Shown here: positions 1 to 62,035 of the stretch, piece by piece
How the letters are laid out: every line of letters begins with the position of its first letter
How positions within the stretch are numbered: position 1 is the stretch's first letter
From: Abditibacterium sp.
Lineage (GTDB): Bacteria > Armatimonadota > Abditibacteriia > Abditibacteriales > Abditibacteriaceae
Assembly (NCBI GenBank): GCA_965199495.1
Contig: CBDASK010000003.1
Location: 2,112,001-2,176,000, forward strand
DNA length: 64,000 nt
Reading direction: 5' to 3'
Notes under the pieces: model-generated
Database searches by the model: none
What the model saw: only the letters and a program-made list of their open reading frames with translations
Told to the model about the DNA's origin: nothing
Made by a program: the position numbers and the translations under genes

Positions 1-1024
1 GAATTCTGGAATCGGCAAACGCGACATCTTCGGGAATTGACGGATCGAGATGATGGCAAACCATCAGCATATCCAAATGTTCCTCGACGGTGTTAATCGT
101 AAAGGGCCGCGTCGGATTGGTCGAAGACGGCAAAACGTTGGGTTGCGCCGCGATGCGAATAATATCGGGCGCGTGGCCACCTCCGGCGCCCTCGGTGTGA
201 TAGGTGTGAATCGTGCGCCCGCCAATCGCGCGAATCGTGTCTTCGACGAAACCGGATTCGTTGAGCGTATCGGTGTGAATCGCGACTTGAACATCGAATT
301 CGTCGGCGACATTCAAACAGGTATCAATCGCTTTGGGCGTGCTGCCCCAATCTTCGTGCAACTTCAAACCGATGGCGCCCGCGCGGATTTGTTCGCGCAA
401 TGGTTGCGGCGTCGAGCAGTTGCCTTTGCCCAAAAAACCCAGGTTCATCGGAAACGCTTCGGCGCTTTCCAGCATTCGCGCCAAATGCCAACTTCCCGGC
501 GTGCAAGTCGTGGCCGATGTGCCCGCCGCCGGGCCGGTTCCGCCGCCGAGCATTGTCGTAATGCCGCTCGCCAGCGCCACTTCGATTTGCTGCGGGCAGA
601 TGAAATGAATGTGCGAATCAATCGCGCCCGCCGTCACGATGCGATTTTCGCCCGCAATAACTTCGGTCGAGGCGCCCACGACCATGTTAGCAGCCACGCC
701 GTCCTGCAAGTCGGGATTGCCCGATTTGCCGATGCCAACGATTACGCCATCGCGCAAACCAATATCGGCCTTGACGATGCCCCAATGATCGATAATCAGC
801 GCGTTGGTAATCACCGTATCCAAAACGCCGTCGGCGCGCGTGGCGCGCGCGCTTTGGCCCATGCCGTCACGGATAACTTTGCCGCCGCCGAACTTGATTT
901 CGTCGCCGTAAACGGTAAAATCTTTTTCAACGCGCGCCCACAAATCGGTATCGGCCAGACGCACGCAATCGCCGGTCGTCGGGCCAAACATCGCAGCGTA
1001 AGATTGGCGGTTTTGATAACTCAT
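1..1024 (-). CDS. ureC: Urease subunit alpha (partial, runs off the left edge)
   Basis: Not in the ORF track. Manual translation from the ATG at 1024 gives [28 protein letters not shown]...[14 protein letters not shown], with [19 protein letters not shown] and MLMVCHHL motifs downstream. Confidence 0.97.
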
Positions 1025-1025
1025 T

Positions 1026-1424
1026 TTAGAGAAAGTAATGCGACAGACAAATCGAGACTGCGAGTTCGCCGCTCAGACGCAGCAATTCAACAGGCAGCAA
1101 ATCGTATTGCGCTGGGAACTCATTGGGATTTTTGCGGCCAATACCAAAGTCAAGCTGTGCATCGGCGTTAAATCCCGCTAATTTTCGCAAATCGCTTTCG
1201 TGAGCGCGCAGAAAAGCGAGCGAATCTTCAATTTGAGCGGGCAAATCGTCGGCATCGCTCACGTCAACTTTGAAACCGTTGTCATCGAAACGGCCCAGTT
1301 TTTTGGCGCCGGGAATAACTTCTTCGCCCACGCGATAAACCTGGTAAGGCTGCAAATTCGTCTCGCCCAAAAAGGCGCCGACATCGAAATCATCGCCGCT
1401 CACGCGCAAAACACATCCGGCCAT
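1026..1424 (-). CDS. Hypothetical protein, DUF4279-like, between ureB and ureC
   Basis: 132-aa ORF abutting the ureB stop and the ureC start. The pattern LRVSGDDFD...[12 protein letters not shown] resembles DUF4279-type proteins (recognition only). Confidence 0.6.
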
Positions 1425-1775
1425 TTAAAGGTTCTCCCACGCGCTCAATCGCGTTTTGACTTCATCAAAATCCGTTGCGCCCGCCGTTAAATCATTGAAG
1501 CCAAACACCAATTTCGCGCCGCCGATTTCGACTAAGTTCACCGGCTTCTCTTCGCCCGGCTCGAACCGAACGGCAGTGCCCGCAGGAATATCGAGGCGCA
1601 TTCCAAACGCCGCTTCGCGGTCGAATTGTAGCGCGCGATTGACCTCGAAAAACGCGTAATGCGAGCCGACTTGGATCGGACGGTCGCCGACGTTTGTCAC
1701 GTCAATCGAGAGCGTGCGCCGACCGGCGTTAAGTTCGATGTCGCCGTCTGCGACGCGGTATTCTCCGGGAATCAT
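1425..1775 (-). CDS. ureB: Urease subunit beta
   Basis: MIPGEY...[19 protein letters not shown]...[18 protein letters not shown]. Confidence 0.97.
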
Positions 1776-1779
1776 AAGA

Positions 1780-2577
1780 TTATTCGTTCCAATTGGCGCG
1801 AGCTTTTGCCATCGTGTCGTTGAATTGGTTGAAAAATTCGTCGTATTTATGCGTGGTGTTGTCGCTCAATCCGGCGAAACGTTGGGCTTTGACGCGCTCA
1901 ACTGTAATTTCGCTCGCGTCGGGTTGCGTTTCGATGAGTTGCATCGCTTCGGCAATGAATTCATCCAATGGCATCGCATTGGGATCGTTGGCTTGCTTGT
2001 CACCTTGCAGCGACGTGGCGACATACGGCGGCACCAATTCCACGACTTCAACGTTGGTTTCTTTTAACTGATAACGCAAAGTTTGCGTGTAAGAATGAAT
2101 CGCGGCTTTAGTCGCGCAATACGTCGGATCGAGAAATAACGGCACATAAGCTAATCCGCTCGTCACCGTCATAATTGTGGCGTTTGTTTGTTGTTGCAAA
2201 TGCGGCAACAGATGCGCCGTCAAGCGAATTGGGCCGAGCAGATTAATATCAATCGTATTTTCGGCGATTCCAAGCGCGGCTGTGGGGTCATTGAGAATGT
2301 CCTCCGCTTGCATGATGCCCGCGTTGTTGATGAGAACATTCAATTCGGGAAATTGCGCTTTGACTTGCTGTGCCAATTCGCGCGTGCTGTCCGCATCAGC
2401 CACGTCGGCTTGCAGATACTTCATGCCTTCGTTGGCGGCGGCGACTTCGCGCAAAGTCTCTTCGTTGCGTCCGACGATAACGACTTGATTGCCTTTGCGG
2501 TGAAACGCCTCGGCTAACCCGCGCCCGATGCCGCTGTTGCCGCCGGTGATTAAGATGGTGTTGCCTGTAATTTTCAT
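1780..2577 (-). CDS. Short-chain dehydrogenase/reductase (DltE-like)
   Basis: TGGNSGIG Rossmann motif, NNAG, and the YCATK catalytic motif. Confidence 0.92.
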
Positions 2578-2610
2578 GTGGAAGTCAAACTTTCAAATCC
2601 GACGCCTCGA

Positions 2611-3754: not shown

Positions 3755-4526
3755 CTCTCCTTTGCAGATAAACCTGCGCCACGCGCTCGTCGGCCTGCAC
3801 TTCGTCCATCGTGCCCTCGCACAAGATTTTGCCTTCGTGCATCACCGTCACGGTCTGCGCGTATTTGCGCACGAATTCCATGTCGTGTTCGACCACCAAA
3901 ATTGAAATATCGTCGCCCAGTTTGTTGAGCAACTGTCCCAAATCGTCGGTTTCCTGATCGGTCATGCCCGCCGCCGGTTCGTCCAACAACAAAACGTCGG
4001 GCTTTTGCGCCAACGTCATGCCGATTTCGAGCCACTGCTTTTGCCCGTGCGCCAACGGCCCGGCCAAGCGTTGCGCCTCGTCTTGCAAACCGATGGTTTC
4101 GAGCCAATTCTCGATTTCGGCTTTCTGCGAATTGGTCGCTTTGGCGCGCAACGTCGCCCATAAACCACGCGGTGCGCGTAGTGCCAGCGCCAGATTATCC
4201 CAAACGGTCAGCGAGCCGAAAACCGAGGGCGTCTGGAACTTGCGCGCGATGCCGCGCGCCACGATTTGGTGTTCCTGCAACTTGCCCAAGTTGGTGCCAT
4301 CGGCCATCAAGACGCGGCCTTTGGTTGGCTCGATGCGCCCGCAAATCACGTCCAAAAGCGTGGTTTTTCCGGCTCCGTTGGGGCCAATCAAAAAGCGCAG
4401 TTCGCCTTTGTTGAGCTTGAAATTCAAACCCTCGACGGCCTTGAAGCCAGAAAATTCGACGGTGACATCTTCGGTGCGCAATGCGGGCAAGCCCGGCGTG
4501 GCTGCATCTGCGTTAAGGGGAGACAT
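3741..4526 (-). CDS. urtD: Urea ABC transporter ATP-binding subunit
   Basis: GPNGAGKT, RKFQTPSVF, HGQKQWLEIGM and LLDEPAAGMT. The start is uncertain (ATG 4526 or GTG 4553). Confidence 0.92.
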   Translation of the reverse strand: MSPLNADAATPGLPALRTEDVTVEFSGFKAVEGLNFKLNKGELRFLIGPNGAGKTTLLDVICGRIEPTKGRVLMADGTNLGKLQEHQIVARGIARKFQTPSVFGSLTVWDNLALALRAPRGLWATLRAKATNSQKAEIENWLETIGLQDEAQRLAGPLAHGQKQWLEIGMTLAQKPDVLLLDEPAAGMTDQETDDLGQLLNKLGDDISILVVEHDMEFVRKYAQTVTVMHEGKILCEGTMDEVQADERVAQVYLQRRVVDA

Positions 4527-6756: not shown

Positions 6757-8151
6757 TTACGAAGTCTTCAACTTCTCTTTCAGACCTTTGGCCCACGGAT
6801 AACCGTCCAAATACGGATCGGGTTTGACCGGGCCGCTCGAACTCCAGACCTGCTTGAACTGGCCGTTGGGCATGATTTGTCCGATGCGCGCGGTCTTGTA
6901 AATGTGCTGCGTCGGGCCGTCGATTTTGATCTGGCCTTCGGGCGCGTCGAACGTGATGCCGCCCGCCGCTGCCTTGACCTTAGCCACGTCGAACGACTTG
7001 GCTTTCTCGACCGAAGCTTTCCACAGGTAAACCGCGTCGTAGGCGGCTTCCATCGGGTCGTCGGTGTAGGGCGTTTTCGGGTTGGCCTTGATGAAATCGG
7101 CCACGAATTTCTTGTTGGCGGGCGTATCGGTCGTCTGGAAATAGTTCCAGGCCGCGTAATGTCCGGCCAGCTTGTCCGCACCAATCGCCGCGATTTCGGG
7201 TTCGGCAATCGAAACCGACATCACCGGCAACTGCTGCGCGGTGATGCCAACCGCTTTCATCTGCTTGAAAAACTCGACGTTCGAGTCGCCGTTGAGCGAG
7301 TTGAAAACCACGTCCGGTTGCGCTGCCTTGATTTTATCGACCAGAGTCGCGTAATCGCGATGGCCGAGGGGCGTATATTCTTCGCCAACCGGCGTCAAAC
7401 CGGCGCCTTTGAGTTGCGCTTTAATTTCGGCGTTGGCGGTGCGCGGGAAGACGTAATCTGAGCCGAGCAAAAAGAACTTTTTCTTGCCCGATTTCAGCAG
7501 CCAATCGACGGCGGGCGAAATCTGTTGGTTTGTGGTGGCTCCGGTATAAAAGATGTTGGGCGAAGTTTCCATGCCCTCGTATTGGACGGGATAATACAAC
7601 AATCCATTGTATTTCTCGAAGACGGGCAGCACGGTTTTGCGCGAAACGCTCGTCCAGCAACCGAAGACGGCGGCGACTTTGTCCTGCGTCAACAGTTTCT
7701 CGGCTTTGGTTTTGAAAGTGTCCCAATCCGACGCGCCATCTTCGGTGACGGGCTTGATTTGCTTGCCCATCACGCCGCCTTTGGCGTTGATCTCGTTGAT
7801 GGCCAGCATTTCGGCGTCTTTGACGGTCGTCTCGGAAATCGCCATCGTGCCGGTCAGCGAATGCAAAATGCCGACGGGCACTTCTTTGACATCGGCTTTA
7901 TCGTAAACCGAGGCATCCACTTTGTCGCCCGTCGCGGCGGCGTCGGTCGACGTGGCTGCTGCGTTGGCGTCGCTCATGGCGGGCGCGGCGTTGTCGGCGG
8001 GTGCTTCCTGTTTGCCGCCGCAACCGGCGATGCCCAACATGGCAACGCCCAAAAGCGCGCTCGACCACAGCAGTTTTTGGGGAAGGTTAATGCGGCTTTC
8101 GACGCGCGGGGCGCCAGCAACAGAAGAAGGAGTTAGGGAAGGGATATTCAT
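6757..8151 (-). CDS. urtA: Urea ABC transporter substrate-binding lipoprotein
   Basis: Lipobox IAGC, VGILHSLTGTMAISE, VFGCWTSVSRK, YPVQYEG and LGSDYVFPR. Confidence 0.95.
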   Translation of the reverse strand: MNIPSLTPSSVAGAPRVESRINLPQKLLWSSALLGVAMLGIAGCGGKQEAPADNAAPAMSDANAAATSTDAAATGDKVDASVYDKADVKEVPVGILHSLTGTMAISETTVKDAEMLAINEINAKGGVMGKQIKPVTEDGASDWDTFKTKAEKLLTQDKVAAVFGCWTSVSRKTVLPVFEKYNGLLYYPVQYEGMETSPNIFYTGATTNQQISPAVDWLLKSGKKKFFLLGSDYVFPRTANAEIKAQLKGAGLTPVGEEYTPLGHRDYATLVDKIKAAQPDVVFNSLNGDSNVEFFKQMKAVGITAQQLPVMSVSIAEPEIAAIGADKLAGHYAAWNYFQTTDTPANKKFVADFIKANPKTPYTDDPMEAAYDAVYLWKASVEKAKSFDVAKVKAAAGGITFDAPEGQIKIDGPTQHIYKTARIGQIMPNGQFKQVWSSSGPVKPDPYLDGYPWAKGLKEKLKTS

Positions 8152-9342: not shown

Positions 9343-11430
9343 TCAACGCCCGATGCGTTCCAAAATTAGCGCGCGCGAGCCGTCGTCGCCGTTGAATTCG
9401 TGAACCGCGTAACCCGCCGCGCGCGCTTGGTTTGCATCGGGCGTTTGCCAGTTCGGTTTATTGCGCCCGAAGAAAACGTAGCGCGCGCCCAAATCGCTGG
9501 CGCCGCGCGCGGTATCGAGCGCCGAGGGCAAGCGATAAAGCGCCGCGATTTTTTGGCCGCGCGCCATCACTTCGCCGTAATTGCCGTCCCATCCCCAGAC
9601 GTGTTGCGGCCAGCCCAAAGTCGAACTCAACCCCGAAAACGCGCCGATAATGCCCCAGTTGGGATCGTAATCGCCGCCCGGCAAACCGTCGGGATTGATG
9701 GATACGTCTTCCATCGCGACTTCGCCCGCGCGCCCGTTGCGCTGCAACCATTCGATAGCGCGCCGGTCGGCGGCGGGCAAATAACGCATTCCGTCGAGAG
9801 AAGCGCCCAAAACCGGCGCGCTGCTCAGCGTCACGGCGCGCGCCCAAATCGTGGACGCGGGCGCCAGCGCCAACACCGGCGCAACGCAAATCAAGGCGAG
9901 CGCGACGACCACTTTCGGCGTTTTGGCAAGCGCCCTAAAGCGCGCGCCCAACTCGGCGCTCAAGCCGACGCCGAGCAAAATCCACGCTTGCAAACCGAAT
10001 TTGAAAACCGTGTCCTGATGGCGCAATTCGCCGTCTCCAAACGCGCCCTTAATATAGAAGAGAAACGGTATCAAAAGCGCCAACAATCCGGCGCCCAGCA
10101 ACACGAGCCGAAAGCGCGCGCGGGCGTCGTGGCTCGTTGCGGGCAGCAACAGCGTGAGCGCGCCCAAGAGTATCCAGCCGCCCCACAATAGAGCGAATGA
10201 AAGCAAATCGGGCATCCACGGATCGCGCACGACGCCGCCAACGGGCGATTTGAATTTCCAGAAATAAAGCGCCGCCGCCAAAATCGCGACCACAAACGGA
10301 GCTATAACCGACGCAATCGCGCGCGTTTTGCTTTGGTTTGGCGCGCGCGTCAGCCAAATCGAGGCGCCGAAAAGCAAGCCAAAAACCGGCGCGTCCCAAG
10401 TGTTGGTCATCAGCCACGCGCCCAGAACCAAGCCGCCGATAACTATAATCGCGCGGCGCGGCGAAGGTTTAGGGGTGGGGCTTGCGCTCCCTTTCAATCG
10501 GGATTTTTTCTTCGCACCCCGATTGGAAGAGGGCGCAAGCTCCGCTCCTACTTCATCTCTTTCGGGGGGCGCGAACAAACTCCACGCCAGCGAGAGCCAC
10601 AGCGCCGCGAAACTGAGCGCATAAAAATGCGCGTGCGCGTCGCCAATCGCCATCGTAAATGCCGGATATTCGTTGATGGTATTGGGAATCACCCGCGAAG
10701 TCGAGAACCAATCGAAAGGCCACATCCAACCTTTTTCGCTCCACTGGCGCAACGGCTCCAACGGCCCGCTCAGGCCGACCAAAAGCATCGTGACAACGCC
10801 CCAAATTTTCGAGCGCGTCAGGGCCGCACCCAGCGCCCACGTCGTCGAAAGGAAGAACGCGCAAAACGCCGGTTGAACCAAATTATAAGCGAAATTGGGC
10901 GTCGTATTGAGCGCGCGCCCCATCAACGCGCCCATCAGCGGCCCGAAATAATAGTAGTTGGTGAAACTGGCGCCGCCCCACCACGGATGGGCAAACGGCA
11001 ACCAATCGGCTTTCCACGCCGCGCTTAACAAGGCGGCGTCCATCGGTTTTTCCAAGTTGTTGATTTCGGGATGCTGCAAGCGAATCCACAAGAACGCCGC
11101 CCAACTCAACAAAAATATCGCGTCCGAAATCAATAATGATTTAACGTTCTGGCGCGCCCACTCGCGCGCCGATTTATCGCGCCAACCCGCCGCGCACACG
11201 ATGGCGGCGAGGGCAGCCACGGGAGGCGCCAGCTTGAGCGGCACGAGATGCAACGTCGCGCCCCAAAACGAAAACAGCGCGACCAAAACGACAAATAAGA
11301 CGCGTCCGGCGGCCAAACCGCCGTCGGGCAAACTCGCGAACAAGCGCCGCGAAATCGGCAACGCCAGCCAACCCAGCGCCCACAGGGCGAGCGTCCAAAT
11401 TAAAATCGTGCTGACCAGAGAAAAAGGCAC
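9343..11430 (-). CDS. DUF2298 (YYY-motif) polytopic membrane protein
   Basis: EKPMD, NYYYFG, SRVIPNTINEYP, GDAHAH and NTWD motifs; many TM segments. Confidence 0.85.
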   Translation of the reverse strand: MPFSLVSTILIWTLALWALGWLALPISRRLFASLPDGGLAAGRVLFVVLVALFSFWGATLHLVPLKLAPPVAALAAIVCAAGWRDKSAREWARQNVKSLLISDAIFLLSWAAFLWIRLQHPEINNLEKPMDAALLSAAWKADWLPFAHPWWGGASFTNYYYFGPLMGALMGRALNTTPNFAYNLVQPAFCAFFLSTTWALGAALTRSKIWGVVTMLLVGLSGPLEPLRQWSEKGWMWPFDWFSTSRVIPNTINEYPAFTMAIGDAHAHFYALSFAALWLSLAWSLFAPPERDEVGAELAPSSNRGAKKKSRLKGSASPTPKPSPRRAIIVIGGLVLGAWLMTNTWDAPVFGLLFGASIWLTRAPNQSKTRAIASVIAPFVVAILAAALYFWKFKSPVGGVVRDPWMPDLLSFALLWGGWILLGALTLLLPATSHDARARFRLVLLGAGLLALLIPFLFYIKGAFGDGELRHQDTVFKFGLQAWILLGVGLSAELGARFRALAKTPKVVVALALICVAPVLALAPASTIWARAVTLSSAPVLGASLDGMRYLPAADRRAIEWLQRNGRAGEVAMEDVSINPDGLPGGDYDPNWGIIGAFSGLSSTLGWPQHVWGWDGNYGEVMARGQKIAALYRLPSALDTARGASDLGARYVFFGRNKPNWQTPDANQARAAGYAVHEFNGDDGSRALILERIGR
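10470..10551. repeat. REP-like palindromic element inside the DUF2298 CDS
   Basis: Imperfect inverted repeat. 10521-10545 (GATTGGAAGAGGGCGCAAGCTCCGC) is identical to intergenic 35374-35398, and the element ends in CTAC (GTAG on the minus strand). Confidence 0.85.
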
Positions 11431-14703: not shown

Positions 14704-14753
14704 AACTTGCGTTGCATCGGATGAAATTTGGCAAACTCCAAGCAGTAAATCTA

Positions 14754-16286
14754 ATGATGAACTGTTGTATTTCGTGGCGTCGCGCTCTGTTGCTTTGCTG
14801 TTTGACTGGTCTGGGCGCCGCTTCTTTGTCGAGTTGCGGCGGCGGTGGCTCCAACCTGCCGACGCCCGCTCCATCGAATCCCGATGCGCAGACGCAAAGC
14901 ATCGCGCGCTGGCAACCAGTGATTTCCGCCGACGCCGGACAAACCGAGGCGCCGCCGGTTGCGGGCGGCGCCATCGCCAACGCCGAAATCGCGCAACTGT
15001 TGGCGCTGCAAAGCGCGCGCACTCCAGCGCAAATCGCGATTTTCAATAAATGGAACAATCGCGCCGCTTCGCAATGGAACGAAATCGCGCGCGATCTGGT
15101 CATCGCAAACGGCACGACGCCGCCGATTTCCTCGCGCGTTTACGCCGCGCTCAGCGTCGCGCAATATGACGCGACCATCGCCGCCGCGCGCGCGCAAATC
15201 ACTTTTAATCGCGCCGCGCCCGCCCAAGTGGATGTGCGCATCCAACCGCTTTCCCCAATTCGCGATGGTTATCCCTCGCGCACATGGGCACTGTGTCGCG
15301 CCAGCGCCGACGTTTTGAAGTCGCTTTATCCGGGCGATAAAGCGCAACTCGAAAGCGCCGAATCCGAATGCGAAACTTCGCGATTGGTCGGCGGCGTCAA
15401 TTTTCCCTCGGATATCGAAGCGGGCAATCAGGTCGGCGCCGCCGTGGCTGCTAAAGTCATCGCGCGTTTGGCGAACGATGGCGCCGACAAAGCCGCGCAA
15501 ACTTTGCCACAACCCAGCGGCCCCGGATATTGGACGGGTAAAGGCGGTTTGTTGCCTTCTTGGAAGTTCGTCAAGCCGTGGCTGACAACCGACATCAGCC
15601 AGTTTCGCGCGCCCGCGCCGCCCGCGTTTGGTTCGCCGCAGTTCAATCAAGATTTGGCCGAGGTGCGCCAAATCTCGGACAATCGCACGCCGGAGCAGTC
15701 CGCAATCGCCGATTTCTGGGCCGACGCCGCGCAAACCTTCACGCCGCCGGGACATTGGAACTTATTTGCAGATCGGATCATCGCCAGCCACAATTTGAGC
15801 GACGCGCAGGCCGCGCGCGTTTACGCGTTGCTGAACATGGCCGAGCAGGATTCGGGGATTTCGTGCTGGAACAGCAAATTTACCTATTGGGTCATTCGCC
15901 CGTCGCAAGCCGACCCGCAAATCACGACGCCAGTCGGTTTGCCCGATTTCCCATCGTATACGTCGGGCCACTCGAACTTTTCGGGCGCGGGCGCGTGGGT
16001 TTTGGGCGCGCTGTTTCCCGACGAAAAACCAATCGTTGACGCTCTGGCGCAAGAAGCCTCAGTTTCGCGCATCTACGGCGGCATTCATTATCGCTTCGAC
16101 GCCGACGGCGGCATCAATAACGGCCACGCCGTCGCCGACCTCGCTGTTGCGCGCTCGCAAAGCGACGGCTACACCGATGGCGTCCCAACGGGCCGCACGT
16201 TGTCGTTCGAGGAATTGAAAAATGACACCAACGCCGAATTAAACCGGCGCGCGCCGGGCACGCGTAAATCGGCGAACTGGGATTGA
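14754..16286 (+). CDS. PAP2 / vanadium-dependent haloperoxidase-family lipoprotein
   Basis: Lipobox LSSC; the C-terminal domain has KFTYWVIRP, PSYTSGH and SRIYGGIH. Confidence 0.85.
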   Translation: MMNCCISWRRALLLCCLTGLGAASLSSCGGGGSNLPTPAPSNPDAQTQSIARWQPVISADAGQTEAPPVAGGAIANAEIAQLLALQSARTPAQIAIFNKWNNRAASQWNEIARDLVIANGTTPPISSRVYAALSVAQYDATIAAARAQITFNRAAPAQVDVRIQPLSPIRDGYPSRTWALCRASADVLKSLYPGDKAQLESAESECETSRLVGGVNFPSDIEAGNQVGAAVAAKVIARLANDGADKAAQTLPQPSGPGYWTGKGGLLPSWKFVKPWLTTDISQFRAPAPPAFGSPQFNQDLAEVRQISDNRTPEQSAIADFWADAAQTFTPPGHWNLFADRIIASHNLSDAQAARVYALLNMAEQDSGISCWNSKFTYWVIRPSQADPQITTPVGLPDFPSYTSGHSNFSGAGAWVLGALFPDEKPIVDALAQEASVSRIYGGIHYRFDADGGINNGHAVADLAVARSQSDGYTDGVPTGRTLSFEELKNDTNAELNRRAPGTRKSANWD

Positions 16287-16381
16287 CGAAGACGCTTTAA
16301 CGCGCCAAATTCTCCGCGTGCGGAACGTCAACGCGGGGTTATCAGTCTTTTAAAACAGCCGAAAAACGGGCTAACAGACTT

Positions 16382-18145
16382 ATGGCCAAAAATCGCAATC
16401 GCCGCGACGATTCCTTTGAAGATTCCGGCGCCAATCCTTTCCAAAATTTCCCCGAAACGCAACTCGATGCGCCGGGACTTTTAGACGAAATTCTCAATTC
16501 GGGCCGCGTTGACGATTCGCGCACTTACAACACGTTGTTGCTGCTGCGCCATCAACTCGAAACCGACAAAAAACAACTCGAAGAAGCCGCCGAAGTTATC
16601 GGTCAATACGAGGAGGCTTATAACAAACTCACCCAGCCCGCCAATCGCATCGGCGTTTATCTGGGCAAACCGCCCGAAGAACGCGTCAAACGCAAAGTCG
16701 AACCCGAAAAACCCGACGAATTGGCGCTCATCGCCGTCGGCGATCAGGAATTCGTGGTGCAGGTTGACCCGAACATTGACGAACCCAAATTCGACATCGG
16801 CACGCGCGTCAAAGTCAACGAGGGTTACGCCGTCGTCGGCGATATGGGGCCAGCCGAAAACGGGCCAATCGCCAAAATTTCCGAAGTCATGGACGACGGG
16901 CGACTGCGCGTCTCGTCCGATCCGCAGGGAATGCAGGGCCGCATCGTCTATCGCGGCGAGAAGATTTTGGGCACCGAACTCAAAGTCGGCGACGAAGTGC
17001 GCATGGAGCCGTTTTTCAAAGTCGCGCTCGAACTTTTCGTCGGCAATGAAACGCGCGATTATTTTCTGGAAGAAGTGCCCGAACTGCCGTGGGAGAAAAT
17101 CGGCGGCCAGGAAGAAGCGATTCAATTGATCCGCGATACCATCGAGATGCCGCTTTTGTATCCCGAATTGTTCGAGCGTTTCGGCAAAAAACCGATCAAG
17201 GGCATTTTGCTGTTCGGCCCGCCCGGATGCGGCAAAACTTTGATTGGCAAGGCGACGGCTTACAACCTGACGCGCGCTTTCAACGAGCGCACGGGACAGG
17301 ATTTGAAAGAATATTTCATGCTCATCAACGGGCCGCAAATTTTGAATATGTGGCTGGGCGAAAGCGAGCGCCAAGTGCGCGAGATTTTCCAGACCGCGCG
17401 CGAAAAAGCCAAAGAAGGCCACTTGGTTTTCATCTTCATTGACGAAGCCGAATCGTTGCTCCGCACGCGTTCTTCGGGGAGAATGGGCAACATCAACAAC
17501 ACTTTGGTGCCGCAGTTCGCCGCCGAAATGGACGGCTTGGTTTCGATGGAAAACGTCGTGGTGATGCTGACATCGAACCGGCCCGACTACATCGACCCGG
17601 CGATTTTGCGTCCCTCGCGTATTGATCGCAAAGTCAAGATTCGGCGACCCGACAAAGCGGCGTCGCGCGACATCTTCGAGATTTATTTGCGCGAAGATTT
17701 GCCCTACGATCCGGCGCTACTCAAGAGCCACGGCGGCGACGTGGCTGCATCGCGCGCACAGTTGGCAAACATGGCGACCGATTACACGTTTCGTCGCACG
17801 CCGGAAACCGAGTTTTTGGAGGTCTACACGCGCGCGGGCGGCGTCGAGACTTTGCACTACAAAGATTTAGTTTCGGGCGCTCTCATCGAGAGCATCGTCG
17901 AGCGCGCCAAGGATTTCGTTATCAAACGTTCGATTGACGTGAAATCGAGTCAGGAAGGTTTGGGCGAAGACGACTTGAAAAAAGCGATTGACGCCGAGTT
18001 CAAGGAAAACGAGATTTTCCCCAAGACCGACAATATCGAGGATTGGATGAAGTTGCTCGATTACGATCAGGAAAATGTGGTGACGCTCAAGCCGATTCGT
18101 CCGGGTTCGCGTGACCGCGAACGCAGTGTGCGCGGCGTGATTTAG
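16382..18145 (+). CDS. arc: Proteasome-associated AAA ATPase (ARC/Mpa family)
   Basis: N-terminal coiled coil and OB-like region, LEEVP..WEKIGG, GPPGCGKTLIGKA, INGPQILNMWLGESER, IFIDE, SNRPDYIDPAILRP and SGALI. Confidence 0.85.
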   Translation: MAKNRNRRDDSFEDSGANPFQNFPETQLDAPGLLDEILNSGRVDDSRTYNTLLLLRHQLETDKKQLEEAAEVIGQYEEAYNKLTQPANRIGVYLGKPPEERVKRKVEPEKPDELALIAVGDQEFVVQVDPNIDEPKFDIGTRVKVNEGYAVVGDMGPAENGPIAKISEVMDDGRLRVSSDPQGMQGRIVYRGEKILGTELKVGDEVRMEPFFKVALELFVGNETRDYFLEEVPELPWEKIGGQEEAIQLIRDTIEMPLLYPELFERFGKKPIKGILLFGPPGCGKTLIGKATAYNLTRAFNERTGQDLKEYFMLINGPQILNMWLGESERQVREIFQTAREKAKEGHLVFIFIDEAESLLRTRSSGRMGNINNTLVPQFAAEMDGLVSMENVVVMLTSNRPDYIDPAILRPSRIDRKVKIRRPDKAASRDIFEIYLREDLPYDPALLKSHGGDVAASRAQLANMATDYTFRRTPETEFLEVYTRAGGVETLHYKDLVSGALIESIVERAKDFVIKRSIDVKSSQEGLGEDDLKKAIDAEFKENEIFPKTDNIEDWMKLLDYDQENVVTLKPIRPGSRDRERSVRGVI

Positions 18146-37499: not shown

Positions 37500-37583
37500 A
37501 AATAGCGGAAGCTGCGTTTGCGGCGCGGTGGCTGCTCTTGAGTTAAACGCAATCGCGTCCGGCGACAAACGCAACGTATTTCT

Positions 37584-44050: not shown

Positions 44051-44087
44051 CTGAGGACTTCTGATTTTCGACTATAAATCTCAAATT

Positions 44088-47680: not shown

Positions 47681-48661
47681 TTAACCCCACGGGTTAGTTT
47701 TCTCATCGGGCACTGCATCCAAAACGGGCTGTGCGATCTTGGTGATCGCTTCAATATCCTGCGAACTCAATTTTAAGGAGGCGGCCTGTGCGGTATCCTG
47801 AATTTGTTCGGCGTTGCGCGCGCCCACAATAGGCGAAGTCACTCCGGGCTGCGCGATGAGCCACGCCAAGGCGATTTGCGCCGTATTGGAATCGTATTTT
47901 TCGGCAATCGGTTTGAGTTGATTAGTGGCTTCGAGGGCGATTCCATAAGCCGGGTCTTTGAAGAGGTGATTGCCCTCGCGATTGTCCGTCGGACGATTGT
48001 CCATATTGAACTTGCCCGTTACCAAACCCTGCGCCAAAGGCGAGTAGGGGATGATGCCGATTTCGTTCTTGATGCAAAATTCGACGGTGCCATTAGCGAC
48101 ATACGGCTGAAAAAACAACGAGTAGGGTGGCTGCAACGCGTCCACGCGTCCATATTGCAGCGCTTCTTCAATGAGCGATTTATCGAAGTTAGAAACGCCA
48201 ATCGCCCCAATCTTTCCGGCTTCCTGCAATTTGACCAAAGCCGACATCGTCTCTTCGAGCGGAACTTTATCGCCGCCCCATGTTCCACTGGGCCAGTGGA
48301 TTTGGTAAAGATCTATTTTGTCAACGCCCAAACGTTTGAGGGAGTCTTCGCAGGACTTGTTCAAATTTTCGGAGGCCAGCGAACCCGCCCCGACTTTGGT
48401 GGCGATAGTCAAATTATCGTAGCCTACTTCGCGGATGAACTTACCGACAATTTCTTCGGAGTGGCCGTCGCCATAGCCTTCGGCAGTATCATAAGAAGTG
48501 ATGCCGCTTTCGTAGGCAGCACGCATCGCGGCCAGAGAATCGTCGTCGTTGGTGTCAGTCCACTGCTTGCCGCCAGCCTGCCAACAACCGAAAGTAAGAA
48601 CCGTAAAATCGAGGTTTGAACGCCCCAATTTGCGCGTGGGAATGGAATTATGTGTTGCCAT
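47681..48661 (-). CDS. Aldo/keto reductase
   Basis: DTAEGYG, IATK, IDLYQIHWP, IGVSNF, YSPLAQG and PIVGAR. Confidence 0.93.
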   Translation of the reverse strand: MATHNSIPTRKLGRSNLDFTVLTFGCWQAGGKQWTDTNDDDSLAAMRAAYESGITSYDTAEGYGDGHSEEIVGKFIREVGYDNLTIATKVGAGSLASENLNKSCEDSLKRLGVDKIDLYQIHWPSGTWGGDKVPLEETMSALVKLQEAGKIGAIGVSNFDKSLIEEALQYGRVDALQPPYSLFFQPYVANGTVEFCIKNEIGIIPYSPLAQGLVTGKFNMDNRPTDNREGNHLFKDPAYGIALEATNQLKPIAEKYDSNTAQIALAWLIAQPGVTSPIVGARNAEQIQDTAQAASLKLSSQDIEAITKIAQPVLDAVPDEKTNPWG

Positions 48662-51874: not shown

Positions 51875-53371
51875 TCACATGACGCCGCGACTTTTCATGT
51901 TGAGATAGCGATTCACTGTCGCGACTGAAAGTTCGCGGGCCTCGACATCCAAAATACCGACACCAAAAGCGCGCAAGTTTTCCAGCGCGCTTTCGCGTTG
52001 ATTGAGCATACGCCTCGCCATCGCTTTTTCGTAAAGTTCGCCCGGCGTTTGCGGAGTTTGCGCGGCTAAATCGGTCACGTCACGATTGTTGATCGTCACA
52101 CACAAAGCGTTATGATGCCGCCGCAAAGCCGCCGACGCGTTGAGCAATTCGCGTGAGGCTTCGGGGTCTATGATGTCGGTGAACGTCACGATTAAGCTGC
52201 GACGCAAACGGCGCGTCAGCAGATATTCGTAGGCGACTTGATAATCCGGCTCGACCAGCGACGGTTGCGCGCCATACAGAGCTTCGATAATTTGGCCGGT
52301 TTGGATGCGGCCTTTGCGCGGCGGCAGATAATTGAGAACCGTATCGGAGAACAAAAGCAAGCCGACGTTGTCGCCCATCGAAGCCGAAACGTGCGCCAAT
52401 AAAACCGTGGCGTTAATCGCGCAATCGAGCTTGGAAAGCGGCGTTTCGATGACGGGCGCGGTCATGCGTGGCGCTTCTCTTCCCCAATCCTCGTCCGCTG
52501 TGGCTGCTGTTTGGGCGATGGGAATTTCGGCTTTGGAACTCGCCATCGAAGTCATCATGCGCCCGCAATCGAGACAAATCACGACGGTTTGATCGCGCTC
52601 GATTTCGTAGTTGGTCGCGATGAGTTTGCCGCTACGCGCGCTCGCTTTCCAGTTGATGGACTTGAATTCGTCGTCGCTGGTGTAATCGCGCAAACTCTCG
52701 AACTCTGTTCCGCGTCCGCGCAGTTTGAGCAAGTGCAGACCAATGTCGCGCATTTTGCCTTCGCGTAGCGCCAATTCGTAGCGGCGCACGCCAGTCGTAT
52801 CGGGATAAACGCGCGCGCCGTCGCCTTCGGTTTGACGTTTGAATTGGCGAAACCATAAACCGAGCGTTGTGCCATAACGCCCGGATAAATCGCCGAAACG
52901 GAAGTCGCCGCGCCGATTGGGCGTGAGCTTATATTGGCCGCTTTCTTCGTCTTGCGTTTCGAGTTTGAGCGTCGCGCGCGGCAATGGCGGCAAAGGCACA
53001 TTGTCCTGAAATCGCGGCAGCTCGTCCGTAGCCACGGCGAAGGAGTCGGGCACTTCGTCGCGCACGATAAGCGTGGATTTCTGGCGCGACTGGCTGCGCG
53101 CGTGCAACGTGACGACGTTGGGCACGCCCAAATTCATCTTCGGCTCGAACGTGCGCCAGACCTCGAAATCGGTGGGGCGAGGCGAAAGATAAACGTCGGC
53201 GACGGCAATCGCCAGCAAAGCCAAATCGTAGACGATAGCGAGCAAACGAAAGCCGGGCAACCATGCTGAAACCAGCCACAATACCGCGCCCAATCCGACG
53301 TAAATCGCCAGCCGGGGCGAGGGCAAAATCGAGTTCCACAGTGCGCCGAGCGCGAGAAGTAAACGTTTCAA
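51875..53371 (-). CDS. DUF58 (vWA-like) MoxR-associated protein
   Basis: RRGDF.FG, VYP, GTEFESLRDY..DE...INWKASAR, LDCGRMM and VTFTD. The start is uncertain. Confidence 0.9.
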   Translation of the reverse strand: MKRLLLALGALWNSILPSPRLAIYVGLGAVLWLVSAWLPGFRLLAIVYDLALLAIAVADVYLSPRPTDFEVWRTFEPKMNLGVPNVVTLHARSQSRQKSTLIVRDEVPDSFAVATDELPRFQDNVPLPPLPRATLKLETQDEESGQYKLTPNRRGDFRFGDLSGRYGTTLGLWFRQFKRQTEGDGARVYPDTTGVRRYELALREGKMRDIGLHLLKLRGRGTEFESLRDYTSDDEFKSINWKASARSGKLIATNYEIERDQTVVICLDCGRMMTSMASSKAEIPIAQTAATADEDWGREAPRMTAPVIETPLSKLDCAINATVLLAHVSASMGDNVGLLLFSDTVLNYLPPRKGRIQTGQIIEALYGAQPSLVEPDYQVAYEYLLTRRLRRSLIVTFTDIIDPEASRELLNASAALRRHHNALCVTINNRDVTDLAAQTPQTPGELYEKAMARRMLNQRESALENLRAFGVGILDVEARELSVATVNRYLNMKSRGVM

Positions 53372-53492
53372 ATTTGGGCCTTGTTCTGCGCTTGCAGTTT
53401 GGGCGAGATGTGCAGTTAAAGCAACCAAAATCACGGGTTGTCAAGTCGGATCGGTTCTGATCTAATATCTTTAGAAAAAGTTTTCGCCCCTT

Positions 53493-55382: not shown

Positions 55383-55469
55383 TTCTCGATTATAGGGCAG
55401 GGCGTGGCTGCATTGGCTTAGGAAAACAGGGGTGAACTTTGGCGTCCAAGAAGCATCTAATTTCTCGCT

Positions 55470-56036: not shown

Positions 56037-57461
56037 TCAATGCCCGTGTTGGGTCGCTTCGTGATAACCGGGTTTATCGTGATAGAAAAACGTCACCCAA
56101 ATCGTGAACGCGGTCATAATCGCGGCGATAACTCCTACCCAGAATAAGCCAATGGTATCAACCAGCAGATAGACGTTGAGTGCCGCGATGATGGTGCAAA
56201 CCAGATAACCGATGATTTTCGTCGGCAGATTGTTGACGAATTGGCCCATGCGATTTTTGTCCGAAGTAAACATCATCAGCGGGAAAATCGCGAACGAGAG
56301 TTGCATCGAAAGCACGACCTGCGAGAGAATCAGCAATTGAACCGTATTCTTGCCGCCCGATGCCGAAATGAGAAACAGCGCGGGAATAATCGCCAGACCG
56401 CGCGTAATCATACGACGTAACCACGGCGCAATACGAATGTTGAGGAAGCCTTCCATCACGATTTGTCCGGCCAAAGTTCCGGTAATCGTCGAAGATTGGC
56501 CCGACGCTAAAAGCGCGACGGCGAACAATGTGGAAGCCAGCGATGCGCCCATCATGGGCGAGAGTAGTTTGTAGGCGTCCTGCAGTTCTTCGACATCGGC
56601 GTGCGCCGTGCCGTGAAAGACCGCGCCCGCCAGAACCAAAATCGCCGCGTTGACGAAAAACGCTGCGCCCAACGCGACAATCGTGTCCCAAGTGTTGAAC
56701 TTGATCGCCTGCCGTACGCCTGCGGGCGTTTTATCGGTGTTGCGCGTTTGCACCAGCGACGTATGCAGATAAAGGTTGTGCGGCATCACCGTCGCGCCCA
56801 GAATGCCCAGCGAAACGATGAACGCTTCTTTGTTGGGAATCGAGGGGACTAAACCAGCAGCCACGTCGCCCCACACGGGTTTGGCGAAGAAGATTTCGAC
56901 GCCAAAACAAACCGCAATTGTGGCGACGAGGGTAACAATAATCGCCTCAATTTTGCGGAAGCCAAAGTGCGTCATGCCCAAAAGCAGCAACACGTCGAAG
57001 CCGGTGATTAAAACTCCCGCCATCAACGAAATGCGTCCGCCCGACAGCAAGTTCAGCGCGACCGCCGAACCGATAACTTCGGCTAAATCGCAGGCGACAA
57101 TCGCGATCTCACATAAAATCCACAAAACAATCGCCGCTGGCTTTTTGTAATAATCGCGGCACGATTGCGCCAAATCTTTGCCGGTCACCAGGCCGAGGCG
57201 CGCGCACAAAACTTGAAGCAACATCGCCATTAAGTTGGAGGCCAAAATGACCCACAACAGCGCGTAGCCATATTTGCCGCCGCCCGCGAGGTCAGTGCCC
57301 CAGTTGCCCGGATCCATGTAGCCGACCGAAACCAAATAGCCCGGCCCGGCAAAAGCCAAAAACCGTTTGATCCAATTGCTTTTTTCAGTCGAAATGCTGC
57401 GATAGGCTTCGGGCAACGAAGGCGCCGCGTTTTCTTTTTCTTTGAATTCTTGTGTTGCCAT
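56037..57461 (-). CDS. mntH: Nramp-family Mn/Fe transporter
   Basis: GYMDPGNW, GATVMPHNLYLH and SSTITGTLAGQIVMEGF. Confidence 0.96.
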   Translation of the reverse strand: MATQEFKEKENAAPSLPEAYRSISTEKSNWIKRFLAFAGPGYLVSVGYMDPGNWGTDLAGGGKYGYALLWVILASNLMAMLLQVLCARLGLVTGKDLAQSCRDYYKKPAAIVLWILCEIAIVACDLAEVIGSAVALNLLSGGRISLMAGVLITGFDVLLLLGMTHFGFRKIEAIIVTLVATIAVCFGVEIFFAKPVWGDVAAGLVPSIPNKEAFIVSLGILGATVMPHNLYLHTSLVQTRNTDKTPAGVRQAIKFNTWDTIVALGAAFFVNAAILVLAGAVFHGTAHADVEELQDAYKLLSPMMGASLASTLFAVALLASGQSSTITGTLAGQIVMEGFLNIRIAPWLRRMITRGLAIIPALFLISASGGKNTVQLLILSQVVLSMQLSFAIFPLMMFTSDKNRMGQFVNNLPTKIIGYLVCTIIAALNVYLLVDTIGLFWVGVIAAIMTAFTIWVTFFYHDKPGYHEATQHGH

Positions 57462-57476: not shown

Positions 57477-58049
57477 TCACGAACTGCCGAACGCGATGCC
57501 CACGCCCAGCACCAATAATCCGCCCAGAACGACTTGAACGACCGATTTCCAAAACGGCGTTTCCATGAAGTGATAACGAATCCACGCGATTAAAATCAGC
57601 TCGACGCCGACAACTCCGTAAGCCGCCAACAGCGCGACGTGCAAACTGGGAATCAAGAATGGCAACGTATGAAAGATGCCGCCGAAGAAAGTCGCCACGC
57701 CGCAAATAATGCCGCGAATCGTTCCGCTTCCGCGCCCGGTTAATTCGCCATCGTCGCTCAAACCTTCGCTCATACCCATGCTGATGCCCGCGCCAAGCGA
57801 CGTGGCTGCTCCAATCAAGAACGCCGTGTGCGGATTGCCCGTCGCATAGGCCGTCGCGAAGAGCGGCGCCAAAGTCGAAATCGAACCATCCACTAAACCA
57901 ACCAGAGCCGGTTGCACCACGCGCAACACGAATTCGCTACATTTGCCATCGGGCGCGACTTGACAATCGCGCACGCCCAATTTGTGTAACATCGAACAGC
58001 CCGCGTGGCGCGGTTCGGGCTGAATGACGGGTAATTCTTGAAGACTCAT
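57477..58049 (-). CDS. VIT1/CCC1-family membrane protein (like the C-terminal domain of MbfA)
   Basis: VQPALVGLVDGSISTLAP, GAGISMGMSEGLSDDG and HTLPFLI. Confidence 0.85.
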   Translation of the reverse strand: MSLQELPVIQPEPRHAGCSMLHKLGVRDCQVAPDGKCSEFVLRVVQPALVGLVDGSISTLAPLFATAYATGNPHTAFLIGAATSLGAGISMGMSEGLSDDGELTGRGSGTIRGIICGVATFFGGIFHTLPFLIPSLHVALLAAYGVVGVELILIAWIRYHFMETPFWKSVVQVVLGGLLVLGVGIAFGSS

Positions 58050-58078
58050 TTCGGTTGTTATGGACGCTCTAATTTTTG

Positions 58079-58096
58079 ATTTAGCTCCGACTAAAT
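58079..58096. promoter_or_regulatory. Putative DtxR/MntR-family operator
   Basis: Palindrome ATTTAG-CTCCGA-CTAAAT about 30 bp upstream of the VIT-mntH operon. Confidence 0.55.
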
Positions 58097-58241
58097 TTCT
58101 ACCTAAAATATAAATCCAGTTTCGCGTTGGGCGTTGCGAGCGAAACTGGAAATTTCTAATACGAACGGGACAAGGTGAAAACACGGTTTTCAGCGAAAGC
58201 CCAAGGATTGGAAAAAGGACGTTAGTCCCGCTCTTTTTAAA

Positions 58242-60386: not shown

Positions 60387-60397
60387 AATCGCGATTT

Positions 60398-60479
60398 GCG
60401 CCAACAGAACCCGGAGCGGAAGCGACGCGGCTAACGAACATAAAAGCCGCGTTGCTTCCGCTCTGGGTTCTGTTGGCGC
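60398..60479. repeat. Inverted repeat of a further REP-like family, a probable terminator
   Basis: 35-bp arms GCGCCAACAGAACCCGGAGCGGAAGCGACGCGGCT with 2 G-T-type mismatches. Confidence 0.8.
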
Positions 60480-60494
60480 GTGAAACGCGCTTGT

Positions 60495-61128
60495 TTACTC
60501 GCCCCGCACCGCAGCAACGCCCGATTTACTCTGCTGCGCCAATTCGCGAATGACCTTAACCGTCACCGCGTAATCTTCACCGAAATCGAATTGGATCAAT
60601 CCCAACGCTTCAGGAAAACGCCCCAGTTCGCGCGCGATTTCGGCGCGCAACATCCGATGTTCGGGCTTCACGCGGTCGAGCATCGTGAATAACGCTTTCA
60701 TGTTCGATGCAGCCACGTCGGACAACTCATTCAATTCGGCGGCGTTTTTCTCGTCGCGTCGCGCGTCGTTGAAGCAGTGCCACGCGTGAATGCGGCAATA
60801 AATTTCGCGTTCTTTGTCGGGCGCCAAACCCGATTCGATGGCTTCGAGATAATCGATTTCGGTTAACGCAATCGGCGCGCGCGCCCGGCACATTTTGGAA
60901 CGTTTGCGGCGGCGTCTCAAATGGATGTTCGCGCGCTTCGGGCAACCACAGCAACGTTTGGCAGTGTGCGCACCGCACCAAGGCCGGAGTTTGCGCAAAC
61001 ATCGGCGCGTCCATTTTGCCGTCCGTCCAATAACGCGCGCCGATGATGTTGCCCGAAAGCAACGTGCGTTCAATGAGCAAACCGTCGCACGACGGACATT
61101 CGCGATAAATCGTTTCGCCGGGCATCAT
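60495..61128 (-). pseudogene. Frameshifted gene for a Zn-ribbon (2x CxxC) + helical hypothetical protein
   Basis: The N-terminal half (CPSC...GARYWTDG...CAHC) and the C-terminal half (LTEIDY...RAEIARELGRF) lie in different frames that join near a (GC)5 run at about 60875-60884. Confidence 0.65.
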
Positions 61129-61168
61129 AAGTTGGCGCGCTGGGGGCAAAACGGGCGCCGCGAATCAT

Positions 61169-62035
61169 TCAAAATAAGCTCATCTGCTGCGCGCCCTCTT
61201 CGCCCGTCGCCGGAAAGCTGAGGCCGCCATCGAAAAGTTGCACGCCGCCGTGCGCCGAAATCGTGCTGCGCACTTCGCCCAGACATTCCGCCATTTCGTG
61301 AACGATTTGCTGCGTATTGAATCGCAAAACCGCCCAACCTTCGTGCGTCAGGGCGTTGTTGCGCTGGTTATCGTCGCGACTTTTTTCGGGATTGGCGTGA
61401 TAAGTGTCGCCGTCGCATTCGATATTCACGTTGCCGCGCGGACAGAAAACCGCGAAATCGAGGCAGTAATTGCGCTTGGCGATTTTGAGCCGCCATTGCC
61501 CTTCGGCTTCGATATTTCCCTGTTTCAGGCCGCGCCACATCGCGTCTTCGAGCGGCGATTCGTGCCACAAATCGTTGAGTTCGCGCGCGTTTTGCAGCTT
61601 GCGTAGCGTCGTCGCAAAGAACACCAGAAATCGCTGGCGCCGCGAAACTATCGGTTGTGGCAACGCTTGCAAAAGACCCAGATTAATTTTCAAATACGGT
61701 AAATCGGCGCGCGGATGAAATGGCTCGGACGGAAATAAATCGCGGCGCAAAACGGTGCGCTCGCTGGCGACGCGCGCCATCCACGCGATTGTGTAGGCGT
61801 CGGGGCCGAACTTTTTGCTGCCAAAATAAAACGCGATATGCTCGTAATTCGAGGGCGGCGCGCTCTTGCACGGAATCCAATACCAGCCCTGCGATTTGAC
61901 CATTTGCCAGTTGCGCGGTTCGGGCAGAATCGCCACCAGAACGCGCTCGGCGGGCGCAACACGCGCATACTCGGACGAACGCGCGAACAGATGATTCGTT
62001 GAATTTGCCGATGGATTCGTGCGCCGTGGCTGCAT
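61169..62035 (-). CDS. DUF559 (Vsr-like) endonuclease with an additional N-terminal domain
   Basis: C-terminal ESPLE, YCLDFA, IECDGDTYH, RDDNQRNNAL..GWAVLRF; N-terminal VLVAI...GWYWIP...IAFY domain. Confidence 0.85.
   Translation of the reverse strand: MQPRRTNPSANSTNHLFARSSEYARVAPAERVLVAILPEPRNWQMVKSQGWYWIPCKSAPPSNYEHIAFYFGSKKFGPDAYTIAWMARVASERTVLRRDLFPSEPFHPRADLPYLKINLGLLQALPQPIVSRRQRFLVFFATTLRKLQNARELNDLWHESPLEDAMWRGLKQGNIEAEGQWRLKIAKRNYCLDFAVFCPRGNVNIECDGDTYHANPEKSRDDNQRNNALTHEGWAVLRFNTQQIVHEMAECLGEVRSTISAHGGVQLFDGGLSFPATGEEGAQQMSLF

Follow-up and report, generated by a model that had tools for sequence, protein, structure and literature searches.

A short, asymmetric and highly over-represented DNA word in Abditibacterium, its orientation rule and its possible relation to DNA uptake words

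The subject of this study is a short DNA word, GTGGCTGC, dispersed through a stretch of 64,000 nucleotides of an Abditibacterium sp. genome. This stretch, hereafter the window, corresponds to G000:C3:2112001-2176000, where G000 denotes the genome (an assembly of 4.81 Mb in three contigs) and C3 its chromosome (4.72 Mb, GC content of 55.75%). An earlier note on the letters of the window had described the word as a dispersed over-represented motif; this observation was confirmed and proved stronger than first noted. The window carries 26 exact copies, 15 on the + strand and 11 on the - strand, against a mean of 1.61 (standard deviation 1.32, maximum 5) in 100 dinucleotide-preserving shuffles. 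The note had listed 24 copies, all of them at the right coordinates, but had overlooked two copies on the - strand (19215 and 34611). The base following the word is A or T in 24 of the 26 copies, as had been stated, and the preceding base is C in 19. The near-matches with a GTGGCT core are all real, although two of the positions given for them (35704 and 51549) differ by one from that at which GTGGCT begins; the heptamer GTGGCTG occurs 51 times in total in the window. The GC content of the window, which had been put at about 57%, was measured as 55.5%. The 26 copies are listed below, where the strand is that of the word, sense and antisense are relative to the open reading frame (ORF), gene calls are rough, and "full 9-mer" stands for CGTGGCTGC, i.e. 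the 8-mer GTGGCTGC preceded by C.

690..697, - strand: full 9-mer, sense in an ORF running off the window start
4498..4505, + strand: full 9-mer, antisense in ORF 3741-4553(-), ABC ATPase
7952..7959, + strand: full 9-mer, antisense in ORF 6757-8151(-), periplasmic binding protein
11213..11220, - strand: full 9-mer, sense in ORF 9343-11430(-), DUF2298
15444..15451, + strand: full 9-mer, sense in ORF 14712-16286(+)
17741..17748, + strand: full 9-mer, sense in the proteasomal-ATPase gene 16382-18145(+)
18733..18740, + strand: full 9-mer, sense in ORF 18202-19485(+)
19215..19222, - strand: full 9-mer, absent from the first list, antisense in ORF 18202-19485(+)
21297..21304, + strand: full 9-mer, antisense in ORF 20741-22048(-), PFK
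23740..23747, - strand: full 9-mer, antisense in the alpha-2-macroglobulin gene 22738-28818(+), 2026 aa
25372..25379, + strand: 8-mer with G before it, sense in the alpha-2-macroglobulin gene 22738-28818(+)
26398..26405, - strand: full 9-mer, antisense in the alpha-2-macroglobulin gene 22738-28818(+)
32598..32605, - strand: 8-mer with A before it, antisense in ORF 31530-32687(+)
34611..34618, - strand: full 9-mer, absent from the first list, antisense in ORF 33791-35290(+)
37528..37535, + strand: 8-mer with G before it, antisense in ORF 36726-37574(-)
38296..38303, - strand: full 9-mer, sense in ORF 37584-38459(-)
39050..39057, + strand: full 9-mer, sense in the histidine-kinase gene 38477-40954(+)
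42315..42322, - strand: 8-mer with G before it, antisense in ORF 41676-43052(+)
43637..43644, + strand: 8-mer with G before it, sense in the parA-like gene 43121-44050(+)
48127..48134, + strand: 8-mer with G before it, antisense in ORF 47681-48661(-)
52500..52507, + strand: 8-mer with T before it, antisense in ORF 51875-53434(-)
55404..55411, + strand: full 9-mer, intergenic, between ORFs 53493-55382 and 55470-55913
56857..56864, - strand: full 9-mer, sense in ORF 56037-57461(-)
57802..57809, + strand: full 9-mer, antisense in ORF 57477-58184(-)
60709..60716, - strand: full 9-mer, intergenic by the rough gene calls
62026..62033, + strand: full 9-mer, antisense in ORF 61169-62053(-)

The copy at 55404, already reported as lying outside genes, is thus intergenic by the rough calls, and so is that at 60709.

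Counts on the whole chromosome revealed that the commonest form of the word is the 9-mer CGTGGCTGC, with 1,780 copies, whereas each of its 27 one-letter variants is present in 7-536 copies, i.e. is 3 to 250 times rarer. The flanking positions are also constrained: C (0.79) is found at position -3, G (0.85) at -2 and T almost never at -1, while A or T (0.78) follows the word, which brings the number of informative positions to 13-15. The consensus of 13 letters, CGVCGTGGCTGCW, occurs 1,085 times on the chromosome, where roughly one occurrence is predicted from base composition (own arithmetic). The unit of the G000 word is CGTGGCTGC, with CGTGGCTG as its core and CGVCGTGGCTGCW as its consensus. 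Several other words of 10-12 letters (e.g. TAAATCGGCGTC, GATTTATCGCGT and TCTTCGACTTCG) are present in G000 at 100-130 copies each, which suggests further dispersed repeat families, and the commonest 8-mers on the chromosome are all CpG-rich.

Our own rough gene calls on C3 comprise 3,233 genes (80.6% coverage). Within these calls lie about 88% of the 1,780 copies of CGTGGCTGC, and the other 220 are intergenic or located at gene edges. Two reading frames predominate, namely the sense frame xxC-GTG-GCT-GCx (V-A-A, 646 copies) and the antisense frame GCA-GCC-ACG (A-A-T, 547 copies); the remaining four contain 157, 123, 56 and 31 copies, so that all six are in use, and the V-A-A, A-A-T and Q-P frames noticed in the window are borne out genome-wide. 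The tripeptides encoded in the two commonest frames are rich in Ala, and CpG is very frequent in the genome, which would be in line with a word that is a mere by-product of amino-acid, codon or dinucleotide usage. However, the enrichment survives a codon-preserving control: in ten within-gene synonymous-codon shuffles CGTGGCTGC was found 41-72 times in the sense orientation, compared with 800 observed, and 31-51 times in the antisense orientation, compared with 760 observed. The observed numbers are 15-19 times those of the shuffles, which remove over 90% of the copies. The word also relies on rare codons, as had been suspected, GCT and GCA accounting for 10% and 5.9% of Ala codons, respectively, and it is enriched in spacers, where 427 cores located strictly outside gene calls bear the same flanks as the genic ones; the consensus does not, therefore, arise from codons. 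Moreover, ten congeners do not have the word (see below). An artefact of composition or coding is refuted by the variant counts, the synonymous shuffles and the congener counts, and we consider that such an explanation has practically no chance of being correct.

An example of what the word may cost is provided by site 17741 in the proteasomal-ATPase gene. At this site, G000 and the related genome G011 have the word in common. In G004 and in three genomes at a greater distance the flanks are conserved, but the equally long stretch that they enclose is unrelated and codes for other residues. The different residues in these relatives, which have no word at this site, indicate that the word is imposed even at the cost of amino-acid changes.

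The chromosome carries 863 copies of CGTGGCTGC on the + strand and 917 on the - strand, in agreement with the presence of both orientations in the window. GC skew along C3 is weak, with a cumulative minimum near 1.92 Mb, at which the origin was placed. When co-orientation was summed from position bins, about 51% of CGTGGCTG copies were co-oriented with replication, and the cumulative strand excess of the core was at most 71 of 3,083. The replichore check that had been proposed thus reveals no skew, which rules out a skewed function such as that of Chi or KOPS (FtsK-orienting polar sequence), and no switch of orientation at the origin or terminus, as in KOPS and architecture-imparting words, was found on the chromosome. 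Word density is even (65 ± 10 per 100 kb), with dips in a few stretches, several of them of low GC content; neither hot clusters of the word nor a bias along genes was found chromosome-wide. The two small contigs, 89 kb together, have the 9-mer only three times and do not contain the 13-letter consensus. Replication-linked asymmetries in general are unusually weak in the G000 genome; a parA and parB pair is located at window positions 43121-45149, ~0.24 Mb from the weak GC-skew minimum.

The relative orientation of neighbouring copies disclosed a feature that is new. Adjacent copies of CGTGGCTG tend to alternate: only 1,142 of 3,082 adjacent pairs share their orientation, as opposed to 1,540 ± 28 in orientation shuffles, none of which (out of 2,000) fell below 1,451 or reached the observed value. 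The ratio of observed to expected same-orientation pairs rises with distance, from 0.1 below 60 bp through 0.15 (60-100 bp), 0.29 (100-400 bp), 0.47 (400-700 bp) and 0.76 (700-1,000 bp) to about 1 beyond 1.5 kb, whereas for opposite-orientation pairs it is near 1 at every distance, except for an excess below 40 bp. Copies of the same orientation exclude one another to about 1 kb, and the two orientations are independent of each other. A control set of 216 non-palindromic 8-mers with at least 1,200 copies was examined in the same way. The eight 8-mers with the lowest same-orientation ratios (0.33-0.87) are all fragments of the word and its flank, while every other 8-mer has a ratio of at least 0.97 (median 1.22). 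The other abundant 8-mers show no exclusion, so the rule does not reflect a general avoidance of direct repeats. The same orientation pattern was found in G011, many sites of which are orthologous to those of G000.

The distribution of the word among relatives was analyzed on samples of 20-500 kb for each genome, with pattern counts made on whole genomes. The public records nearest to G000 are metagenome-assembled genomes (MAGs) with 95-96% identity of the proteasomal ATPase, the next nearest having at most 81%. In 13 Abditibacterium genomes the word is carried only by G000, G011 and G004, with 3,091, 2,676 and 3,503 copies of CGTGGCTG, respectively, against ~300 for the reversed-word controls; the other ten contain 133-348 copies, at or below the reversed-word control. 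The three carriers form a single clade and were therefore counted as one origin. Comparison with related genomes, which the earlier note had recommended, thus shows a clade-restricted word, and it also shows dialects. The G004 form is ACGTGGCTG (2,717 copies, control 26), with the consensus (T)(A)GGACGTGGCTGGTGT(C); an exact match to this 15-letter form is seen at 38 of 101 cores. In this dialect, single copies lie in genes and hairpin pairs between genes. At some orthologous sites of G000 and G004 each genome has its own flanks, and some G004 copies align against gaps in G000. G000 and G011, 85% identical over 206 kb, were compared site by site: G011 retains 46 of 75 9-mer copies of G000 in identical form (61%), whereas the retention background is 33.5% over all 9-mers and 37.8% when composition is matched. 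Besides the word, a repeat of ~107 copies with CRISPR-like regularity dominates the k-mer table of the G004 sample (loci L002 and L045-L052).

The window itself was searched against Rfam, and the sole match, unrelated to the word, was the urease-antisense small RNA (sRNA) family 5_ureB_sRNA (RF02514, 102 bits) at positions 577-872 (+) in the urease region, which probably reflects conserved urease coding sequence rather than an sRNA. Window positions 14001-34000 are matched at 85-99% or more by contigs from lichen and rock metagenomes, which indicates that relatives of the G000 organism occur in such samples.

Inverted pairs of the word, whose existence was another point raised for checking, do occur. 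Among the G000 pairs separated by 60 bp or less, 60 are -/+, 39 are +/- and 6 are direct; the close inverted pairs include 198 of 3,083 sites, and 80 of the 99 pairs lie within coding calls and 15 are intergenic. G004 was surveyed over 500 kb, where 132 of 369 sites belong to -/+ hairpins (arm ~19 letters, loop 14-20 letters). Over its first 100 kb, non-coding DNA holds 24 of the 27 paired sites, and coding sequence 35 of the 42 single ones. Such hairpins, mostly between genes, call to mind repetitive extragenic palindromic (REP) elements and REPINs (hairpin-forming REP doublets), i.e. the word could form one arm of a small palindromic unit that a Y1 transposase of the RAYT (REP-associated tyrosine transposase) type disperses, its genic copies being half-sites or decayed copies. 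The G004 copies found opposite gaps in G000 and the RAYT-like genes encoded in both G000 and G004 would be consistent with this. On the other hand, the G000 copies are mostly coding, in all frames, with few in close inverted pairs. The repeats on either side of the RAYT-like genes are those of another REPIN family, in which the 8-mer occurs with T before it (one of five Y1 loci examined in G000 and two of eight in G004), and none of these 13 loci has the hairpin of the word on both sides. With or without the word, 25 of 31 relatives have Y1 transposases; in G017, where hairpins are densest (see below), none was found. A RAYT/REP origin was rejected on the flanking repeats of the 13 loci and on the Y1 distribution, and we hold it to be very improbable. 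The other REPIN family can be seen at G000:C3:3721150-3722050 (L114:2150-3050), where a 150-aa IS200/IS605-type (RAYT-like) gene has REPIN-type nested inverted repeats on both sides; it has perhaps 16-20 copies and also flanks two Y1 genes of G004.

Other genera of the family have words of their own. In G017 (region G017:C14:600001-800000, loci L089-L098) this is (G)AGTACGGTCGA, whose 9-letter core occurs 209 times in 200 kb, compared with ~2 for one-letter variants. It is found mostly as perfect hairpins flanked by A and T runs, at about one unit per 2 kb, and these look like bidirectional terminators sharing one stem sequence. In two other Abditibacteriaceae MAGs, a palindrome of 10 letters, CGAGTACTCG, is present in 14 copies in 5.9 kb (L004) and 18 copies in 19.6 kb (L006), i.e. 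about one per kb or more; it was seen in other genera only and, judged by its sequence, is a HIP1-like iterated palindrome outside cyanobacteria. No hyper-abundant word was found in 122 kb of G016, nor in single 20-kb samples of several other relatives.

The presence of CGAGTACTCG suggests that the family is prone to words resembling HIP1 (highly iterated palindrome 1), and the G000 word could likewise be kept by selection or methylation-linked repair for organisation of the chromosome or nucleoid, or for DNA processing, its reader being a modification enzyme or a DNA-binding protein and not an uptake machine. Its hyper-abundance, conservation between genomes and use of both ORFs and spacers have parallels in what parts of PMC5861425 describe for HIP1. 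The two classes may overlap, since methylated HIP1 raises transformation efficiency according to a portion of bioRxiv 10.1101/2024.09.10.611283, and passages of both these sources leave HIP1 still argued between nucleoid and transformation roles. However, the G000 word is asymmetric, differing from its own reverse complement, and a duplex-binding protein would not tell same from opposite orientation at 100-1,000 bp. Moreover, Vsr does not track the word: a Vsr-type repair drive (PF03852) was rejected, since among the word-bearing genomes there was a strong match in G004 only, a sub-threshold one in G000 and none in G011. Methyltransferases of the C5 and N4/N6 families, compared at the level of families, are present in congeners with and without the word, and no clade-restricted member is evident among them. 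An explanation along the lines of HIP1 therefore appears unlikely to us.

Chi sites are asymmetric and over-represented, and RecBCD or AddAB recognises them on a single strand and in a single direction. In a similar manner, a translocating helicase-nuclease loading at DNA ends might recognise the G000 word on the unwound strand, and the word might switch this enzyme from degradation to recombination or protect self DNA; both orientations would be needed because breaks are two-ended. Exclusion within each strand, with independent strands, is what is expected of a one-directional single-strand reader with diminishing returns. The gene content of the genus provides two further points in favour. 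Firstly, an AddAB-like pair occurs in all ten word-less congeners (e.g. at the G009 locus L083:6065-12544, - strand, 1,079 and 1,072 aa) and was not found in the three word-bearing genomes. Secondly, a 1,421-aa protein encoded on the - strand at G000:C3:4111368-4115630 (L082:7365-11630) is restricted within the genus to G000, G004 and, in part, G011. It consists of an N-terminal PD-(D/E)XK nuclease, a region of ~680 aa without a family match and a C-terminal Dna2/Upf1-like superfamily 1B (SF1B) helicase, and no full-length match for it was found in PADLOC or NCBIfam.

None of the candidates (RecC, AddAB, Vsr, REP transposases and methyltransferases) is nevertheless a convincing reader. RecBCD was rejected, as RecC (PF04257) was found in 0 of 21 genomes. 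AddAB itself is not found in the word-bearing genomes, and its loss as the cause of the word was also discarded: the correlation within the genus is perfect, but it amounts at clade level to a single evolutionary event, and an AddB-like protein was not found in five genomes of other genera either (G016, G017, G014, G033 and G034; of these, G016 alone was checked for the word, with none in 122 kb), and its absence thus extends beyond the word-bearing clade. In G011, where the word still abounds, the nuclease-helicase is frameshifted and lacks ~680 residues at its N-terminus. It is present in word-less G016, and it was kept as a lead only. Its homologues in G016 and G017 are 42-45% identical, and it was not found in the palindrome-bearing G033 and G034. 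The adjoining TopIB was set aside as unrelated to the word, since it is found in 16 of 18 other family genomes. There is no replichore skew, and hairpin pairs are not expected for Chi. The word, with its 13-15 informative positions, is longer than any Chi known to us. Taken together, this makes a Chi-like role improbable in our estimation.

The counts, the distribution among genomes, the retention of sites and the orientation rule are observations, whereas we infer a link to transformation or recombination, and drive. Tentatively, and with somewhat less than even confidence, we favour a self word that is read on a single strand and plays a part in transformation or recombination. It would resemble the DNA uptake sequence (DUS) of Neisseriaceae and the uptake signal sequence (USS) of Pasteurellaceae. 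Homologous DNA bearing the word would be favoured at uptake and recombination, as with DUS and USS, and for this reason new copies would spread by molecular drive. They would be written into genes wherever the protein tolerates it (mostly as V-A-A and A-A-T) by means of rare codons, and also into spacers. The reader would act on one strand or in one direction, e.g. on the single strand entering the cell or on a resected one, in which case a second copy on the same strand within ~1 kb would add nothing and would not accumulate, while a copy on the other strand would be unaffected. The specificity of the reader may have drifted between sister species, giving rise to dialects. That the two orientations behave as independent series points to a reader confined to one strand or travelling in a single direction over ~1 kb, and one-strand reading would place its action at or after the conversion to single-stranded DNA in transformation or recombination. 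Such a placement would lie between the classical DUS/USS and Chi pictures.

The G000 word displays the hallmarks of uptake words that are described in parts of PMC1939737 and PMC7811141: most copies in ORFs, about a tenth or fewer in inverted pairs, fairly even spacing and an excess of -/+ over +/- pairs. Competence genes, for which a check had been recommended, are present in G000 (ComEC, DprA, a ComEA-type domain, eight secretin matches and eight PilB/PilT-type matches). Several observations weigh against this explanation. (i) ComEC is found in all 12 other congeners, including the ten without the word, and the competence genes are therefore not discriminating. (ii) Uptake of USS is independent of orientation according to a passage of PMC1939737, and exclusion limited to copies of the same orientation is thus not predicted by a classical surface receptor. 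(iii) G000 and G004 (~80% identity) share 9 of 48 and 9 of 29 sites, compared with a background of 26.9%; sharing at background fits fast turnover, but also other processes that steadily write new copies. Together with the retention in G011, it indicates that sites persist over short times and are replaced over longer ones. (iv) Divergence around conserved sites showed no dependence on distance or direction. (v) The predominance of coding locations among the close inverted pairs of G000 means that they are not mainly terminators in this genome. As to the earlier proposal of an uptake signal, or of a recombination or nucleoid-protein site, the checks it named favour a word of the DUS/USS type, while the same-orientation exclusion is unlike an orientation-blind duplex receptor.

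It is also conceivable, although rather unlikely, that the word belongs to a separate class, that of a quickly re-targeted mark of self DNA which a recombination or DNA-entry machine reads on single strands. This reading would take in the dead zone of ~1 kb in each strand series, the shifted dialects of sister species and the unrelated words of sister genera (the terminator-like hairpin of G017 and the 10-letter palindrome in two MAGs). If this were true, Abditibacteriaceae would be naturally suited to a search for the reader and to studies of why such words appear and give way to others. To our knowledge, uptake words have been proven experimentally in only two proteobacterial families. A sharply defined dispersed word has now been found in a barely studied phylum with cultured members, and a literature search yielded no report of it; those Abditibacterium papers that were judged, by title, concern ecology or taxonomy, and none of them genome words. 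The three species with the word and ten congeners without it form a natural control set, the pair of dialects points to what must differ in the reader, and the orientation rule is concrete on mechanism (one strand or one direction over ~1 kb). If the word biases transformation, it would offer a practical handle for genetics in Abditibacteriota.

Among known systems, REP/REPIN elements with RAYTs resemble the words described here in having intergenic inverted pairs that can fold into hairpins, above all those of G004 and G017, but most copies of the G000 word are single and intragenic, and the RAYT-like genes are flanked by another repeat family. With Chi it shares what would be the simplest route to per-strand exclusion, i.e. 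one-strand reading; unlike Chi, it has no replichore skew, forms hairpin pairs and is carried by genomes in which RecC and AddAB were not found. Cyanobacterial HIP1 (GCGATCGC) is similar in its 15- to 300-fold over-representation, in sites conserved within and between ORFs and in lineage variants, as described in part of PMC5861425. HIP1 is, however, a palindromic octamer tied to methyltransferases, whereas the G000 word is asymmetric, has 9-13 letters and showed no methyltransferase link in the families compared. The likeness to the DUS of Neisseriaceae, as presented in sections of Frye et al. 2013 (PMC3630211), includes a short asymmetric word, thousands of copies, both strands, genes as well as spacers, hairpin-capable inverted pairs, lineage dialects and low density in foreign DNA. 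Differently from DUS, the word belongs to Abditibacteriota, is unrelated in sequence and is known here from genome sequence alone, and its inverted pairs in G000 are mostly inside genes. We know of no same-orientation-only exclusion for DUS. The USS of Pasteurellaceae differs in that its uptake does not depend on orientation (a passage of PMC1939737), while the two orientations of the G000 word form separate series, and there are no AT-rich flanking segments around the latter. The split seen in G004, with pairs non-coding and singles coding, is shared with both USS and DUS. The density of the G000 word is of the same order as that of USS, which occurs about once per kb (parts of PMC7811141 and PMC1939737). 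In both, most copies lie in ORFs (65% for the USS of H. influenzae, according to part of PMC1939737) and about a tenth or fewer in inverted pairs, and -/+ pairs exceed +/- pairs, at 60:39 in G000 and 69:40 in H. influenzae (part of PMC7811141).

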